DNA from: an uncultured Candidatus Bathyarchaeia archaeon
GTDB lineage: Archaea > Thermoproteota > Bathyarchaeia > TCS64
Assembly: GCA_964347405.1 (NCBI GenBank)
Contig: CAYFYM010000055.1
Span: forward strand, 1-38,730
Direction of reading: 5' to 3'
DNA: 38,730 nt
Positions 6,693 to 21,199 of the stretch are shown in pieces; positions within the stretch are counted from its first letter, which is position 1; every line of letters starts with the position of its first letter. The notes beneath the pieces were generated by a model. It saw only the letters and a program-made list of their open reading frames with translations, searched no databases and was not told where the DNA came from. The translations under genes and the position numbers were made by a program.

Positions 6693-6770
6693 TTTACTTC
6701 ATGTCTGGCTTGAGAAACACTTTTTATAAACCTTAGAGGCCCTGTTCGGTATACAAATAAAATCGATTTC

Positions 6771-10380: not shown

Positions 10381-10391
10381 AGGTTTAAAAG
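10381..10391 (+). promoter_or_regulatory. BRE/TATA box (aggTTTAAAAG), preceded by a weak T5 terminator (10376-10380)
   Basis: Ends 29 nt before ATG 10421. Confidence 0.45.
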
Positions 10392-15482: not shown

Positions 15483-16415
15483 ATGATCACGACAGTAGCA
15501 CAGGAGCCTGAGGCCGCTCAGGATCAAAGCTGTCCCTCGTGCAACGGAACGGATCTTATCCACGACATCGATACGGGGGAGGTGATCTGCTCTAGATGTG
15601 GCACCGTGGTCGATGAACGTTCATACGACCTCGGTCCGGAGTGGAGGTCCTACACTAGGCAGGAGAGAGAGGCACGGGCGAGGACCGGCCACGCGCTGAC
15701 CAACAAGATCTATGACCGCGGTCTCTCGACGGTGATGGCTGGTAGCGTGGACGCGCGGGGGAAGCAGCTGGACACGGAGACCATGAGGAAGATGAACCGG
15801 CTGAAGCGCCTCAACAGCAGGGAGAAAAACTACGAGTCATGGGACAAGAACCTCAAGATAGCCCTCAGCGAGATGGACAGGATATGCACAGAGCTCCATC
15901 TCCCAGACTACATACACGAAGAGGCGGCGAAGATCTACCGCAAGGTCCTGAAGAAGGACCTGGTAAGAGGGAGATCCATAGACGGGTTCGTGGGGGCGTC
16001 CATTTTCGCCGCGTGTAGGCTCTCGAAGCTCCCCTACTCCATCAAGAAGATCGCGGAGGTAAGCATGTTGGACAGCAGCGATATAGGGTACCACTACCGG
16101 CTGCTGGTCAAGGAACTCGACATCAAGATGCCTCTCGACAAACCCAACAAGTTCGTGTTGGGCATGGCCTCCCGTCTCGGTCTCAACGCGGACGTGGAAC
16201 AACACTCGATGAGGATAATCGAGAAGGCCAAGGAGAAGAGACTGGTGGTGGGCAAGAACCCGAGAGGCGTGGCGGCTGCCGCGTTTTACCTCGCGTGCGT
16301 CCATAAGGGGTACCCGGTCACCCAGACCCAGGTCGCGAACGTCGCCGACGTATCCGAGGTAACCATGAGGAAAAGGTTCAAGGAATACGAGCCCATCCAG
16401 AGCTTCATGGAATAG
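15483..16415 (+). CDS. tfb: Transcription initiation factor IIB (TFB)
   Basis: N-terminal zinc ribbon CPSCNG..CSRCG. Two cyclin-fold repeats (GRSIDGFVGASIFAACRLSKLP, KNPRGVAAAAFYLAC). Confidence 0.93.
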   Translation: MITTVAQEPEAAQDQSCPSCNGTDLIHDIDTGEVICSRCGTVVDERSYDLGPEWRSYTRQEREARARTGHALTNKIYDRGLSTVMAGSVDARGKQLDTETMRKMNRLKRLNSREKNYESWDKNLKIALSEMDRICTELHLPDYIHEEAAKIYRKVLKKDLVRGRSIDGFVGASIFAACRLSKLPYSIKKIAEVSMLDSSDIGYHYRLLVKELDIKMPLDKPNKFVLGMASRLGLNADVEQHSMRIIEKAKEKRLVVGKNPRGVAAAAFYLACVHKGYPVTQTQVANVADVSEVTMRKRFKEYEPIQSFME

Positions 16416-16472
16416 CTCGGCCCCCGTTCTTACTGTTTATATTTTAAACGATTATTTTCGTCTTTATCCTCA

Positions 16473-16696
16473 GGTTCAATGCTTCGTTGAACCATCAAGA
16501 TGCAGTTGTGCCCGTTTTCCATAAACGAAAAGTGCCCGAATGTTCTCGCGTGGAGATGAAGTTTTCATCTGCGCCAAAGCCCAGATGTACTTTGAAGCCC
16601 ATCTCAGTGCTCAGCGTCTTAAGGTCGTCCGCTTCTTGGACCTTAGGGCGCTCCCATTCAGGCAAATATATCCTCGAAGGGTGCCTTATAAACCTG
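16473..16696 (-). repeat. Copy A of a promoter-bearing ~215-bp element (candidate small RNA gene), minus orientation
   Basis: Core 16529-16652 is the reverse complement of 20498-20621, with 118/124 identical by my hand alignment. caggTTTATAAGG (16684-16696) lies 34 nt upstream of the core. A T-run and a conserved hairpin (16473-16493) lie downstream. Confidence 0.85.
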
Positions 16697-16827
16697 AATT
16701 TTTAATAAATAGCAAAATATATGTTTTTTCTATTAATTTTCTCGTTTATACAGTTAAAAAAATATTCAGTCGAAGTTATTCAATCTATATAAATGATGTT
16801 TTCTCAGATGAAAATAGTTGCCTGTAA

Positions 16828-17127
16828 ATGACCGATGAACTCCAGGATTCCCTTGAGGAGATACTTGAGGACACCGCCAACGAGAAACACCTCGATCACT
16901 TGTACAGGATATGGCATAGGCTGGACGAGAGCGGGGATTTCGGCACATTCAATGCGTTCGCCGCGGGCAACTTCGCGGGGGCAATGATCTTTCTATACTC
17001 CAGCTACGAGGGAAAAAAGATCTCTAATCTAGATGAAAGAGATATCAAGGATCTAACCCACAGGATTCTGGGATATTATTATGATCTAAAACCCATGATA
17101 AAAGACTACGTAACGAAACACGAATAA
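16828..17127 (+). CDS. Hypothetical protein (99 aa)
   Basis: ATG ORF with coding-like composition after an AT-rich spacer. No family recognised. Confidence 0.45.
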   Translation: MTDELQDSLEEILEDTANEKHLDHLYRIWHRLDESGDFGTFNAFAAGNFAGAMIFLYSSYEGKKISNLDERDIKDLTHRILGYYYDLKPMIKDYVTKHE

Positions 17128-17146
17128 ACAATTCCTGATTGTGCTG

Positions 17147-17725
17147 CTAGACCAGTGATTTTATTCCGAACCCTACCAGAAAAGCGACTACCCCCAGCAC
17201 CATCATTCTCAGCCCCCTCCAGATCTTCTCTCCCCTATTCTTCTCGCTGAAGATGTAGCCTGTTAGGAACAGCAGGGATATCGTGAGGCCCACGGATATC
17301 CATATAGTTGCCTTCACATGCAACACGTTTGCCAAGCTCAGAATTTGAGGAGTCAACGCGTACAGGGAAGTGAAGATCGGTGTGAGGAGTATGATTAATG
17401 CGATCACCGCCGTCTGCCTCTGTTCGTTCTCGACTATGAGCGTCTCGTCCAGATCCCGTAGCAGGGATTCCTCAAGAGACTCGATCTTCTTCTCCGCCTG
17501 CAGCGTCTCGGCCTCGTAGACGCTCACCCCCGAGGATATGCCCAGCGAGAAGGTGCCGGCCAGCAGGGTCCCCAGGAATATCTTTTGGTCAAAGTTCTCC
17601 GAGAACGCGGACCCCACTATTATTCCCAGTATCGTGAAAGAGGCGTCAAAAACCGTGTTTATGAAGTATGGTTTCAGCTTGTAGTATATCTCGCTGAACT
17701 CGGTCTTCCAATCGCTGATGGACAA
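17147..17725 (-). CDS. VIT1/CCC1-like (DUF125-type) membrane protein
   Basis: 192 aa with a two-block TM layout split by a charged coiled segment. N-terminal FDASFTILGIIVGS resembles the VIT family. TATA box caggTTTATATG at 17754-17766. Confidence 0.45.
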   Translation of the reverse strand: MSISDWKTEFSEIYYKLKPYFINTVFDASFTILGIIVGSAFSENFDQKIFLGTLLAGTFSLGISSGVSVYEAETLQAEKKIESLEESLLRDLDETLIVENEQRQTAVIALIILLTPIFTSLYALTPQILSLANVLHVKATIWISVGLTISLLFLTGYIFSEKNRGEKIWRGLRMMVLGVVAFLVGFGIKSLV

Positions 17726-17918
17726 CTTCAGTCAGTTAATTCTAAAAAGTAGATCATATAAACCTGAAACAGTTCTCCGCGTATTCACATATCCATGCAG
17801 GAGGTCCATTATCTCCATATCTTCATTCAAATCATCTTCACTAAATTTTAATATTTACATAATAATGGCACTAAAATAAGGTTATAAGAAATGCTTTCAA
17901 TACTTGTAACGAGAAAAA

Positions 17919-19118
17919 TTGGTTAAAACACTGGAAGAGCTAGCATTCAGCGACATAGACGCGTTGGTTAGGAAAGACGTTCAGACGTTCAAGCCCCAGG
18001 ATAAGGTCTCCAAGGTTCTAGGGGAGCTATACGAATCGAGCCACTACGAAGCCTTGGTGGAGGACAACGGCAAGTACGGCCTCGTCACTGTGAGGGATCT
18101 CTTGGTGGTCCAGCAGCCCGCCCAGACGACCATAGGCGGCTACCCGAAGGACAGGTGGAGCATATACAGGTCGGTGTCCGCTGAAGACAGCGTGCTGGAC
18201 GTGAGCGAGATATTGATAGAGCACAAGGTGAGGGCTTTACCCGTGGTCGATGACGGCTCAGCGTCTGGAATCATCTGCCAGGTAGAGCTTGTTGACGCCT
18301 TGACGGAGGTGGATGAGCTGTCAGGCATCCCGGCGAAGGACGTCATGGTCCTTCCCGTCGTCACAATGGACGCCAATGAGCCTGTCGCGCGGGCGAGGAA
18401 ACAGATGATGGAAGCCGGCTTCAGCCACGTACCCGTGATAAGGGAGGGGAAGCTGGTCGGTGTCGTGACCGCGAAGGACGTGGCCACGATCTATGGTAGA
18501 CCCATAGGCGCAACGACCACCGGCGACTTGGTCGGGGAAAAGGTACCCAGATACGTGGGTGTCCTCGGGGACATAATGGATAAACATCCGGTCACTGTTT
18601 CCTCAGACTCCAGCGCTTTGGAGGTGGCTAAGAAGATCAGCGAACACAGGAAAGGATGCTGCCTCGTATTGAAAGACGAAATGGTCGTCGGCATAGTCAC
18701 CCCCAGAGAGCTGCTGTCGCCCCTCCTCCAGTTCAGGGCCCCCGAAGAGGAGCTAATCGCGTATATTACTGGGTTAGACGAAGCGATGGACTTTTTGGAT
18801 AAATCCGTCGTGGAGAGCAAGGTGATGAGGGTGGTCAGGAGGGCTCGGAGGATTCACCCCCACCTCTCGGAGGCGGGCGTGAACATAAAGACCTCCAGGG
18901 CGAGGGGGAACAGGAAACGGTACGAAGTGGACGTCAACGTCTACAGCAAGGCCACGGATGAACGGTTCCACCTCAAGAAGGAGGGCTGGGACCCCTACAA
19001 CCTGTTCGACGAGTTGAGTGAGGCTCTTGACAGGGTTCTGAGGGAGTCGAAGCACGAGCCCAGGGGCGAGTCCAGGACCCAGAAAAGGATAAGGTTCTCC
19101 CTGAGAAGGAAGCCCTAG
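17919..19118 (+). CDS. Four-CBS-domain protein with a C-terminal HPF/RaiA-like (ribosome-hibernation-factor-like) domain
   Basis: TTG start 31 nt after aaGGTTATAAG (17878-17890). Four CBS-type repeats (..GLVTVRDLL, ..GIICQVELV, ..GVVTAKDV, ..GIVTPRELL). Residues ~278-380 follow the beta-alpha-beta-beta-beta-alpha pattern of HPF (see findings). Confidence 0.8.
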   Translation: MVKTLEELAFSDIDALVRKDVQTFKPQDKVSKVLGELYESSHYEALVEDNGKYGLVTVRDLLVVQQPAQTTIGGYPKDRWSIYRSVSAEDSVLDVSEILIEHKVRALPVVDDGSASGIICQVELVDALTEVDELSGIPAKDVMVLPVVTMDANEPVARARKQMMEAGFSHVPVIREGKLVGVVTAKDVATIYGRPIGATTTGDLVGEKVPRYVGVLGDIMDKHPVTVSSDSSALEVAKKISEHRKGCCLVLKDEMVVGIVTPRELLSPLLQFRAPEEELIAYITGLDEAMDFLDKSVVESKVMRVVRRARRIHPHLSEAGVNIKTSRARGNRKRYEVDVNVYSKATDERFHLKKEGWDPYNLFDELSEALDRVLRESKHEPRGESRTQKRIRFSLRRKP

Positions 19119-19226
19119 CCACTCCCAAGGTGATCGACCACGGTAACCCCCATAGGCATCTTCCTTTTCTTTTCAACCATCATCCTCATCGGCTATTTCA
19201 GCAACATCATATACACTCGAACAGGC

Positions 19227-20381
19227 GTGCCGGACCTCATATGGCTGCTTGTCTTCGGGTTGATCCTCGGCCCCGTGCTGAACCTGGTGGACAGGAGTAT
19301 CTTCATCGAGATCTCGCCGGTAATCAGCGTCGCCACCATCATACTGATCACCTTCGAGGCGGGGACCGACATCGACTACGAGACGCTCAAGTCTGTGCTC
19401 CCCACCACGATTGTCCTCAGCGTCTTCACGTTCACGTTAATCACGGTGGGGACTGGCCTGGTCACGCCCAGACTATTCCCGGGGCTGGGCTTCACCGAGT
19501 CCCTGATGCTGGGCACCTTCCTAGGCGGCATAAGCACCGTAGCCGTCATGAGCGCCATGGATAAACTGTCGATAGTCTTCGAGGACATCACGGAGTCCCG
19601 GCTCATCCTCTACCTGGAGTCCACCATAGTGGACCCCATCCGCGTCATGACCGCCATAGCGCTGATCAGGATCATGCTGCGCAGCGAGGTCCTCCCGCGT
19701 GAAATCTTCAAGGAGATCGTCTTCGTGTTCCTCGCCGGGGCCGTCGTCGGGCTCCTGTCGGGGGTCCTCTGGATGATGGTCCTCCACAGGCTCAGGAACC
19801 TACCCAACAACTACATGGTGACCGTCGCCGTGCTCCTGCAGGTCTACTACCTCGCCGAGATGGTGGCCGGGGACGGGGGAGGAACCATGGCCTGCTTCAC
19901 CTTCGGCTTCGCGCTAGCCAACCACAGACTGATAGGTAGAAGGCTCGGGTTCCGCCCGTTGATCAACATCAAGCGCCTCGTCCAGGTGAACGACGAGATC
20001 AGCTTCGTGTTGAAGTCCTACTACTTCGTGTACACCGGGATCATAGCCTCGCTGTCGCCCAGGTTTCTGGCCGTGGGGGCGGCGCTCACCGTTTTGATAA
20101 TCGCGCTGCGGTTCCTCTCCGCCGAGTTGACGGGGGTCTTCACCGATCTCGGGGGCAGGGAGCTCAGGATCACCAGCCTGGTCTACCCGCTGGGGACGTC
20201 TGCCTTCGTTTTCTCGCAGCTCCCCTCCATATACGAACCGGGTGGACAGGTCATCCAGAACCCTGACCTGTACTCGAACATTGTCTTCCCCGTCGTGCTG
20301 GGGACCATACTCTTCACGGCTTTGCTGGTTCCACGCATTCTGGGGCATGCTTTGGAACAAGATGACGATGAATCCATGTGA
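19227..20381 (+). CDS. Cation/proton antiporter (CPA1/NhaP-like Na+/H+ exchanger). The annotated 5' end is probably incomplete.
   Basis: 384-aa polytopic protein, N-terminus PDLIWLLVFGLILGPVLN. The same frame stays open and hydrophobic back to 19134 without any ATG/GTG/TTG (see findings). Confidence 0.8.
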   Translation: MPDLIWLLVFGLILGPVLNLVDRSIFIEISPVISVATIILITFEAGTDIDYETLKSVLPTTIVLSVFTFTLITVGTGLVTPRLFPGLGFTESLMLGTFLGGISTVAVMSAMDKLSIVFEDITESRLILYLESTIVDPIRVMTAIALIRIMLRSEVLPREIFKEIVFVFLAGAVVGLLSGVLWMMVLHRLRNLPNNYMVTVAVLLQVYYLAEMVAGDGGGTMACFTFGFALANHRLIGRRLGFRPLINIKRLVQVNDEISFVLKSYYFVYTGIIASLSPRFLAVGAALTVLIIALRFLSAELTGVFTDLGGRELRITSLVYPLGTSAFVFSQLPSIYEPGGQVIQNPDLYSNIVFPVVLGTILFTALLVPRILGHALEQDDDESM

Positions 20382-20453
20382 TGGGGGCGCCTGAACCTGC
20401 ACTTCATGACTGCACAGACCCGGAAAAACACGTTATTTTAAGGAGAAACCCTA

Positions 20454-20667
20454 AGGTTTATATGAAATGTCTATTATACATTATTTGCTCGAATTGAAGC
20501 GCCCTAAGGTCTAAGAAGCGGACGGCCTTGAGACGCTGAGCACTGAGATGGGCTTCAAAGAGCATCTGGGCTTTGGCGCTGATGAAAACTTCATCTCCAC
20601 GCGAGAACATTCGGGCACTTTCCATTTTACACAAAAGTTATGGGTTCATCGAAGATCCCGTGAACCC
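20454..20667 (+). repeat. Copy B of the promoter-bearing ~215-bp element (candidate small RNA gene), plus orientation
   Basis: aaGGTTTATATGA (20454-20466) lies 35 nt before core 20498-20621. It is followed by a T4 run and a hairpin gggttca/tgaaccc (20642-20667). This is the inverted partner of copy A. Confidence 0.85.
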
Positions 20668-20905: not shown

Positions 20906-21199
20906 TTATAAAGATTCTAACGTCCTTGAAGGACACGCGTAGCCCTGATACCCGTTCTTTACCTTCTTTGATGCCCCGGATAAGAGGCTCGTAGATGTCG
21001 TTATTCTTCTACCGTGATGGCCTGGGCACGCGTTCATGCAGGTCATGCATAGAATGCAGGCTTCTGGCCTGAGGGCTTCGGATTTCAACGCGCCCCCATA
21101 TGCCTCCATCGATTTTAACTCGTAAATGTTGGAGGGGCACACAGCCACGCAGTGGCCACTGCCTTCACATAACTCCAAGTCTATTGTTATCTTAGCCAT
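20906..21199 (-). CDS. 2-cluster ferredoxin with an apparently frameshifted C-terminal extension
   Basis: CEGSGHCVAVCP (second ligand replaced by Ser) and CILCMTCMNACP. After NACP an alternative frame reads AITVEE-stop (21021-21001), the canonical ferredoxin ending. Confidence 0.7.
   Translation of the reverse strand: MAKITIDLELCEGSGHCVAVCPSNIYELKSMEAYGGALKSEALRPEACILCMTCMNACPGHHGRRITTSTSLLSGASKKVKNGYQGYACPSRTLESL

Follow-up and report, generated by a model that had tools for sequence, protein, structure and literature searches.

Paralogous genes in an inverted pair on a Bathyarchaeia contig probably encode a compact structured RNA of an undescribed family

The window analysed here, i.e., the entire 38,730 nt of contig CAYFYM010000055.1 from an uncultured Candidatus Bathyarchaeia archaeon (assembly GCA_964347405.1), carries two inverted repeat arms that are probably paralogous, stand-alone genes for a compact, trans-acting non-coding RNA of ~145 nt, representing an undescribed family that occurs in some Bathyarchaeia only. 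That the arms belong to a family of structured RNA genes is very likely in our judgement, while more specific statements about the role of the RNA are graded below. If correct, this reading would add a new RNA class to those of Bathyarchaeia, a major archaeal group that is uncultured. RNA classes with complex folds are, to our knowledge, rare in archaea, and we know of almost no experimentally characterised RNA biology in Bathyarchaeia; comparable conservation has previously marked ribozymes, riboswitches, or scaffolds of ribonucleoproteins (RNPs). The novelty is that the RNA belongs to no described family, whether judged by model, by sequence, or by defining features; its function could prove ordinary.

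A repeat search of the window delimited the two arms as 16523-16668 and 20482-20627 (146 nt, 92% complementary, 3813 nt apart), a pairing far beyond chance, with related copies in dozens of genomes. An earlier description of this DNA, made from its letters and open reading frames (ORFs) without database searches and referred to here as the sequence-only reading, had proposed that the arms are two duplicated, independently transcribed small RNA genes. Its alignment of a core at 16529-16652 with the reverse complement of 20498-20621 was reproduced exactly (118/124 identical), and the proposal itself is supported, at the level of sequence, by a covariance search, by ~90 homologs with strong covariation, and by a promoter geometry that holds family-wide. 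The two predicted genes and their promoter boxes, each comprising a B recognition element (BRE) and a TATA element, are as follows.

16522..16666, minus strand: RNA gene copy A (RNA nt n = window 16667-n), with the 3' tail CUUUUCGUUUA
16684..16696, minus strand: putative BRE/TATA box of copy A, CAGGTTTATAAGG, which ends ~20 nt upstream of RNA nt 1
20484..20628, plus strand: RNA gene copy B (RNA nt n = window 20483+n), with the same helices as copy A and the 3' tail CUUUCCAUUUU
20454..20466, plus strand: putative BRE/TATA box of copy B, AGGTTTATATGAA, recognised from its sequence and from the family-wide promoter profile

Homologs were gathered by BLAST and used to build a covariance model (R1), and a broader model (R2) was made later; E-values of both models are rough, while the bit scores obtained in genus g1 (120-156) are far above noise. 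Copy A is the best R1 match in the window's genome (147.7 bits, E=1e-38), and copy B scores 137.5 bits with R1 and 131.5 bits with R2. The search for further copies that had been suggested with the sequence-only reading thus yielded ~90 distinct homologs, and their alignment covaries: five helices, a 2-bp junction helix, and a 5-bp pseudoknot all show covariation. Two alignments were used for detailed analysis, A3 (55 copies realigned with R1, 49 distinct sequences) and A4 (75 copies from metagenome-assembled genomes [MAGs] realigned with R1, 74 distinct sequences), both numbered according to copy B with nt 1 at window position 20484. In this numbering, the elements of the fold are the following.

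RNA nt 3-12 with 125-134: P1, a 10-bp G+C-rich stem that closes a three-way junction by pairing the two RNA ends
RNA nt 16-18 with 51-53: P2, from covariation
RNA nt 23-28 with 41-46: P3, with a conserved 12-13-nt loop, CnAAGAAGCGnAA
RNA nt 32-36 in the P3 loop (GAAGC in copy A) with 69-73 (GCUUC): pseudoknot, 5 bp
RNA nt 57-58 with 118-119: P4a, from a mutual-information scan
RNA nt 62-67 with 109-114: P4, from covariation
RNA nt 83-88 with 93-98: P5, with the cap GGC-UUUG-GCU

In A3, 91.4% of the pair cells hold standard pairs, compared to 26-39% when partners are slid by 1-3 columns, and both sides change at 23 of 37 pairs; the observed values were reached in 0 of 500 shuffles. The corresponding numbers for A4 are 87.9% of cells paired and 27-40% in the slid controls. 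Pairing is most complete in the pseudoknot (99.1% and 99.7% of cells), where four of the five pairs show compensatory changes and the variants GAAGC/GCUUC, GCAGC/GCUGC, GAGGC/GCCUC, ACAGC/GCUGU, and GAAAC/GUUUC occur. A mutual-information scan that was blind to structure recovered P1, P3, P4, P5, and the pseudoknot; its top pair, 57-119, had not been part of the earlier model and is G-C in 39 sequences and A-U in 27, with C58-G118 adjacent. Beyond P4a, the near-invariant A56 lies opposite R120, and G55 lies opposite A121; P4a reads as a short helix capped by the tandem purine pairs G55.A121 and A56.R120, for which we propose sheared geometry. Approximately 10 purines at the junction are near-invariant (G13, R14, and A15; G55 and A56; R120, A121, G122, A123, and A124). 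The junction sends out two arms, P2-P3 and P4a-P4-P5, and the predicted pseudoknot between the P3 loop and the bulged strand of the P4 arm clamps them side by side. A further helix, P4b (nt 75-77 with 106-108), was dropped because only 57% of its cells pair in A4. The perfect local hairpin GATGAA-aac-TTCATC, which had previously been singled out as a feature of the core, occupies the 3' strand of P4 and is not conserved in the family. In a subgroup of genus g4 (loci L115, L127, L093, L080, and others), one or two extra hairpins, often with GNRA-type loops (GCAA, GUAA) or CAAA, stand between P4 and the 3' strand of P1, and the RNA reaches up to ~215 nt; in this subgroup the junction strand GCGAGAAC also gives way to GCGGUGAUCUCG-like sequence. 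The motif GGUGAUC of this subgroup is complementary to the usual 3' end of archaeal 16S rRNA.

The strand of the RNA is fixed by conserved G.U pairs, since these would be A.C mismatches on the opposite strand (e.g., 68 of the 74 sequences in A4 have G.U at one P5 pair), and the geometry of promoter and T-run agrees with the strand thus derived; the strands named earlier, minus for copy A and plus for copy B, are the same. With regard to the promoter, 71 copies show 90-100% A/T at positions -25 to -21 before RNA nt 1 and conserved A residues at -36, -35, and -31, and a BRE/TATA box lies ~25 nt before the first paired nucleotide throughout the family; this archaeal BRE/TATA geometry would therefore place the transcription start at approximately nt 1-3. 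The TATA box previously reported upstream of each window copy was found, in keeping with this geometry, and the T-run reported 3' of each copy is present at both; family-wide, 51 of 72 copies have at least four consecutive T in the 25 nt that follow P1. Matches to the box AGGTTTATA lie at 16687-16695 (minus strand) and 20454-20462 (plus strand), each upstream of its copy in that copy's own orientation, and number 5 in the window, compared to 0.23 expected. The box preceding the RNA genes, AGGTTTAWA, also occurs at window positions 6725-6733, 10381-10389, and 17757-17765 and appears to be a local strong-promoter consensus; one occurrence stands 32-40 nt upstream of the start of the VIT-like gene, in line with the earlier remark that protein genes share the box.

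Several observations indicate that the RNA is not protein-coding. In 89 distinct homologs, the distances between conserved blocks cover the ranges of 64-72 nt and 16-22 nt without a gap, and this lack of three-base periodicity excludes a coding function; the alignment of the four copies in the window's own genome likewise includes 1-2-nt indels inside conserved blocks, and no reading frame is conserved across homologs on either strand, including the ORF on the opposite strand. The sequence-only reading had judged protein coding unlikely, in part because of an in-frame stop in copy B; the stop is real (TAA, where copy A has CAA), and both the indel pattern and the fact that substitutions track base pairs point the same way.

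Copies A and B have 13 differences over the 145 positions of the RNA (91% identity), while their identity outside the RNA is ~50%, except for the TATA box and a downstream hairpin. Stems contain five of the differences: at three of them a pair is still formed (U.G in place of C-G twice and in place of U-A once), and the other two leave copy B with weaker positions, namely U12.C125 where P1 ends and U84.U97 in P5. The sharp edges of homology at the RNA ends fit either an old local duplication after which only the RNA was under selection, or conversion of one paralog by another. The two downstream hairpins, each with a 7-bp stem, align with each other and are located as follows.

16473..16493, strand not assigned: hairpin GGTTCAA-N7-TTGAACC, between the 3' end of RNA copy A and the 3' end of the convergent tfb gene
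20642..20667, strand not assigned: hairpin GGGTTCA-N12-TGAACCC, downstream of RNA copy B and adjoining the T6 run that ends a convergent 64-aa ORF

These hairpins had been described as a conserved terminal structure of the RNA. Both exist, but they are placed past the T-run, fall outside the RNA family model, and are particular to this pair; no such hairpin is found in the closest orthologs (L011, L012, and L013). For the hairpin downstream of copy A, the probable explanation is a shared terminator or a leftover of the duplicated unit.

The window's genome, a MAG of 339 contigs that is 87% complete, holds four copies in all, the two further ones (on contigs C242 and C21) showing 72-76% identity; relatives that carry the RNA have 1-6 copies per genome. 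Searches with R2 detected the RNA in 13/13 genomes of genus g1, 8/8 of g4, 1/1 of g27, 1/1 of g6 (two copies on a closed chromosome), and 1/4 of g26; the same model did not find it in genera g24, g25, g2, and g5 of the same family or in any of 8 genomes across three other families of the order, and R1 found none in ~120 genomes of other families of the class. A degenerate pattern scan covering one genome for each of ~185,000 species gave 70 matches, all in MAGs of Bathyarchaeia or Bathyarchaeota from soil, peat, permafrost, and aquifers, save one in an "uncultured archaeon" and one in a contig binned as bacterial. The latter (L091, DATKWN010000086.1, labelled Krumholzibacteriaceae bacterium) is a 5.4-kb contig with the RNA followed by the same band-7 gene that is found at Bathyarchaeia loci and is most likely mis-binned archaeal DNA. 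The viral contigs of IMG/VR contained no copies of the RNA. The family is thus restricted to some genera of one Bathyarchaeia family. Presence in all sampled genomes of two genera, as several diverged paralogs at fixed loci, is unusual.

The nearest downstream gene is on the same strand at 34 loci and convergent at 34, and flanking genes are conserved within paralog groups and different between them; both observations indicate a stand-alone gene at stable chromosomal positions rather than a leader or a miniature inverted-repeat transposable element (MITE). One paralog group has a divergent tRNA-Arg(CCU) gene ~300 nt upstream, and an AlaX-like gene lies downstream in this group and in one group of genus g4; this gene is common to different genera only at the apparently ancestral locus. 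Another paralog group lies near tRNA-Lys and tRNA-Gly genes and upstream of a band-7 gene. No protein family is common to all RNA loci, and none is a neighbour across paralog groups. At L026 (106-251 and 1500-1647; also at L122), a full copy is followed 1.25 kb downstream, on the same strand, by a partial copy that comprises the last ~70 nt and the downstream flank; the two proteins encoded by the insert at L026 are one of 206 aa, with matches to a winged helix and, weakly, to a nucleotidyltransferase, and one of 122 aa that is HEPN-like by eye, and the arrangement resembles the footprint of a small element inserted in the 3' half of an RNA gene. At L087, which belongs to another genus and paralog group, a 392-aa homolog of the CBS/HPF-like protein of the window is encoded ~100 nt past an RNA copy on the same strand; this proximity is probably a coincidence, because a model scan of six other sister-genome loci with the gene showed no RNA nearby.

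The window copies are oriented away from an intervening cassette that lies outside the RNA and is given here as context.

16667..20483, strand not assigned: interval between the copies (3.8 kb)
16828-17127, plus strand: 99-aa ORF, from the ORF list
17147-17725, minus strand: VIT1-like gene, from Pfam
17919-19118, plus strand: gene with four CBS domains and a weak S30AE/HPF-like C-terminus, from Pfam
19227-20381, plus strand: Na+/H+ exchanger gene, from Pfam

Among nine ORFs between 15084 and 22314 that were scanned with Pfam, there were matches to TFIIB, VIT1, CBS with S30AE, Na_H_Exchanger, ferredoxin, and Na_Ca_ex, and none of the nine matched a recombinase family. The closest orthologs of the window copies (in G004, G005, and G023) are single copies in non-syntenic surroundings; orthologs of the cassette CBS gene in these three genomes have no RNA copies nearby, and the gene order differs. 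Among 73 other loci, one has two full copies within 8 kb, and these are direct repeats. The inverted bracketing is thus peculiar to this genome, since the orthologs are single and non-syntenic and no other inverted pair was found, and we infer that a local duplication or a gene conversion event confined to this genome gave rise to the pair. In G004 (contig C88, locus L160), the segment 7256-8639 corresponds to window positions 17931-19061 plus 21023-21199, with the CBS/HPF-like gene followed directly by a ferredoxin homolog on the same strand; in the window, the ferredoxin gene is located beyond copy B on the opposite strand. The CBS/ferredoxin region is rearranged between species.

A number of other explanations were weighed against that of a stand-alone, trans-acting RNA. 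The one that we regard as least unlikely, though still unlikely, is a ligand-sensing RNA in which a metabolite or ion bound at the junction would stabilise P1, such that P1 and the weak T-run act as a conditional terminator controlling read-through into downstream sequence. Near-invariant junction purines, an architecture that resembles many aptamers, a T-run that directly abuts the 3' strand of P1, and a same-strand gene 53-440 nt downstream of half of the copies are all consistent with such a sensor; the other half of the copies, including both in the window, face a convergent gene, the same-strand downstream genes share no theme (e.g., band-7, gamma-glutamyltranspeptidase-like, and AlaX-like), the promoter belongs to the RNA itself and places the start exactly at P1 with no leader, and no Rfam riboswitch matches. 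A riboswitch or other cis-acting leader was accordingly rejected on the basis of the even split in neighbour orientation and the heterogeneous downstream families. Slightly less probable again is a new ribozyme class, self-cleaving or otherwise catalytic, with its active site in the conserved junction. The junction purines, a hammerhead-like design in which probable tandem purine pairs cap a junction helix and a clamp joins the other arms, and a peripheral hairpin of the kind seen in many ribozymes, variable and in one subgroup carrying GNRA-type loops, would suit a catalyst, but no known ribozyme model matches at E<=10, the hammerhead core is absent, and known small self-cleaving RNAs usually lie within longer transcripts or repeats rather than in stand-alone genes whose ends pair with each other.

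The remaining alternatives treat the arms as DNA features or as coding remnants. The sequence-only reading had suggested that the inverted arms could mediate inversion of the cassette, and repeats of this length, identity, and spacing would indeed suffice for occasional homologous recombination, a notion that is also compatible with the arms being RNA genes; that an invertible 3.8-kb segment is the relevant feature is nevertheless improbable, given that none of the nine scanned ORFs resembles a recombinase and that the arrangement was found in no other genome. Among metagenome contigs, the normal junction was seen in one and the inverted junction in none; the former contig (L161, JABAOH010061453.1) is 99% identical over window positions 16103-18169, with 2 mismatches and one 18-nt indel, and with n=1 it is weak evidence for a fixed orientation of the cassette. 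Inversion would also leave promoter-gene connections unchanged, because each gene has its own promoter. A MITE-like mobile repeat, or one resembling a short interspersed nuclear element, without cellular function is more improbable still. The copies are multiple, the window-type subgroup (window copies A and B and those in G004, G005, and G023) stands at non-syntenic sites, and two loci have an extra degenerate copy of the 3' half; on the other side, genomes carry few copies, most of them at orthologous positions across species and even genera, strong purifying selection with compensatory changes acts on the RNA, the conserved promoter is external, and the copies are associated neither with IMG/VR viral contigs nor with transposases. 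The plain MITE that the sequence-only reading had kept in view was rejected on these grounds (1-6 copies, mostly orthologous chromosomal loci, none viral). Finally, the chance that the arms derive from a small protein gene on either strand, as fragments or pseudogenes, is close to nil; short ORFs do occur on both strands, and one on the opposite strand (MFSRGDEVFI...) is open in both copies, but the block spacing shifts by 1-2 nt without a three-base period, substitutions follow pairing rather than codons, and the other candidate frame has a stop in copy B.

The explanation that we prefer is that each copy is its own transcription unit and would yield an RNA of ~145 nt whose ends are locked in the 10-bp G+C-rich P1, with the pseudoknot holding the two arms in parallel and the purine-rich junction, together with the invariant loops, forming a binding or active surface. 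Such a stably folded particle would act in trans, most likely bound into a protein complex as its RNA component, and paralogs at fixed loci may have partly separate roles; selection would maintain the RNA at 91% identity between the window copies while the flanks decay to ~50%, and the inverted pair would not be a device for flipping the genes between the copies. A trans-acting particle is favoured over a cis-regulator or an antisense guide because the genes are not tied to any downstream gene, because the RNA has no long variable single-stranded segment that could serve as a guide, and because it is present in all sampled genomes of two genera. We propose more tentatively, as a possibility that is itself rather doubtful, that the RNA is a new functional class with a sophisticated biochemical role, either as a subunit of an undescribed RNP or as a new catalytic or ligand-binding fold, with the clamped purine junction as its active or binding site and different specificities among the paralogs.

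A number of points weigh against this explanation. Transcription, RNA ends, and abundance are all inferred from sequence. T-runs are short (T3-T4), 20 of 72 copies have no run of four T within 25 nt of P1, and the 3' ends of the RNA are uncertain for this reason. No protein partner was found, and no adjacent gene is common to the paralog groups; the trans-acting, protein-bound role, which we derive from gene layout and fold, is finely balanced between credible and not. Single-sequence folding does not favour the RNA strand (z of -3.5 on the RNA strand and -5.0 on the opposite strand for copy A, and near 0 on both for copy B), and in copy A the fold of lowest energy contains the GAUGAA/UUCAUC hairpin, a competitor of P4, the helix that covariation supports. 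Copy B, in which two stem positions are weakened, also has a rare U in place of G12, which is otherwise 99% conserved, and may function less well than copy A.

Known RNA classes were compared with the family individually. Rfam 15 has no match in the window at gathering thresholds, as the covariance search proposed earlier for this DNA has now established, and nothing in it overlaps copy A at E<=10 or eight diverse copies from three genera at E<=5; full-text literature searches likewise turned up nothing on this RNA. 5S rRNA was rejected, as canonical 5S genes are located elsewhere in the window's genome (G000, contigs C141 and C54; 61-71 bits), the RNA gives no match to RF00001, and it shows no similarity to the 5S sequence of G000. 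RNase P RNA and signal recognition particle (SRP) RNA were rejected because canonical RF00373 (183-210 bits) and RF01857 (113-129 bits) are found elsewhere in four sister genomes that carry the RNA; neither RNase P RNA nor SRP RNA was found in the G000 assembly, though sister genomes have both, probably because this MAG is 87% complete. Three helices and an inter-arm tertiary contact, as expected for a hammerhead, are present (P1, P2-P3, P4a-P4-P5, and the pseudoknot), but the core CUGANGA...GAAA...UH is not, and there is neither a CUGA turn nor a conserved C or U at a cleavage site. With regard to box C/D sRNAs, a C box (RUGAUGA) and a D box (CUGA) are not conserved in the family; the CUGAUGA that had been put forward as a possible k-turn element is present in copy B only (copy A has CAGAUGA), and the family consensus has no boxes there. 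Y RNA was rejected, given that a TROVE/Ro protein (PF05731) is encoded in 1 of 61 genomes of the family while the RNA is in all sampled g1 and g4 genomes; the lone TROVE/Ro60-like protein is located at G017:C137:14777-15664, in a 549-aa open frame. A mimic of the 23S rRNA GTPase-associated centre, considered because of a resemblance to AAAGAAAGCGUAA, was also rejected, as the lineage's own 23S rRNA shares only scattered, non-colinear words of 6-12 nt with the RNA. A ~145-nt object with a defined structure and a covariance model opens the way to structure determination, pull-downs of partners, and mining of metatranscriptomes.

In its overall design, the RNA has several partial counterparts among known systems. 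Like the hammerhead (RF00008, RF00163, RF02275-RF02277, including forms with a pseudoknot between stems I and II), it has three helices that meet at a purine-rich junction, one of which (here P4a) is extended by apparent tandem G.A/A.G pairs while a tertiary contact or pseudoknot far from the junction links the remaining two; unlike the hammerhead, it has one variable nucleotide between P2 and G55-A56, has no covariance match at E<=10, and is a stand-alone gene of ~145 nt with paired termini. Purine and tetrahydrofolate (THF)-I riboswitches also have a three-way junction closed by P1, in which long-range loop-loop or loop-bulge pairing holds two arms parallel. The RNA shares with these aptamers the P1-closed junction, the clamped arms, and conserved nucleotides that could form a pocket, but its own promoter would start transcription at P1, half of its copies face convergent genes, and it has no Rfam match. 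The resemblance to 5S rRNA includes an end-closing helix, a three-way junction with two arms that each have an internal loop and a hairpin, a size of 120-145 nt, an own promoter and T-run, and several copies per genome, whereas the 5-bp inter-arm pseudoknot, the 72-76% identity among paralogs, and the presence in few genera set it apart. Y RNAs and the bacterial Yrl RNAs, which are associated with Ro60, are likewise small stand-alone paralogs with a long end-to-end stem and a U-rich tail; the RNA described here differs in having no adjacent rsr-like gene and a different internal fold. Finally, although it is archaeal, multi-copy at fixed loci, unrelated in sequence and structure, and far smaller than OLE or ROOL, the family resembles the orphan raiA, OLE, ROOL, and LOOT motifs in its strong covariation, many invariant nucleotides, pseudoknot, narrow taxonomy, and uninformative context.

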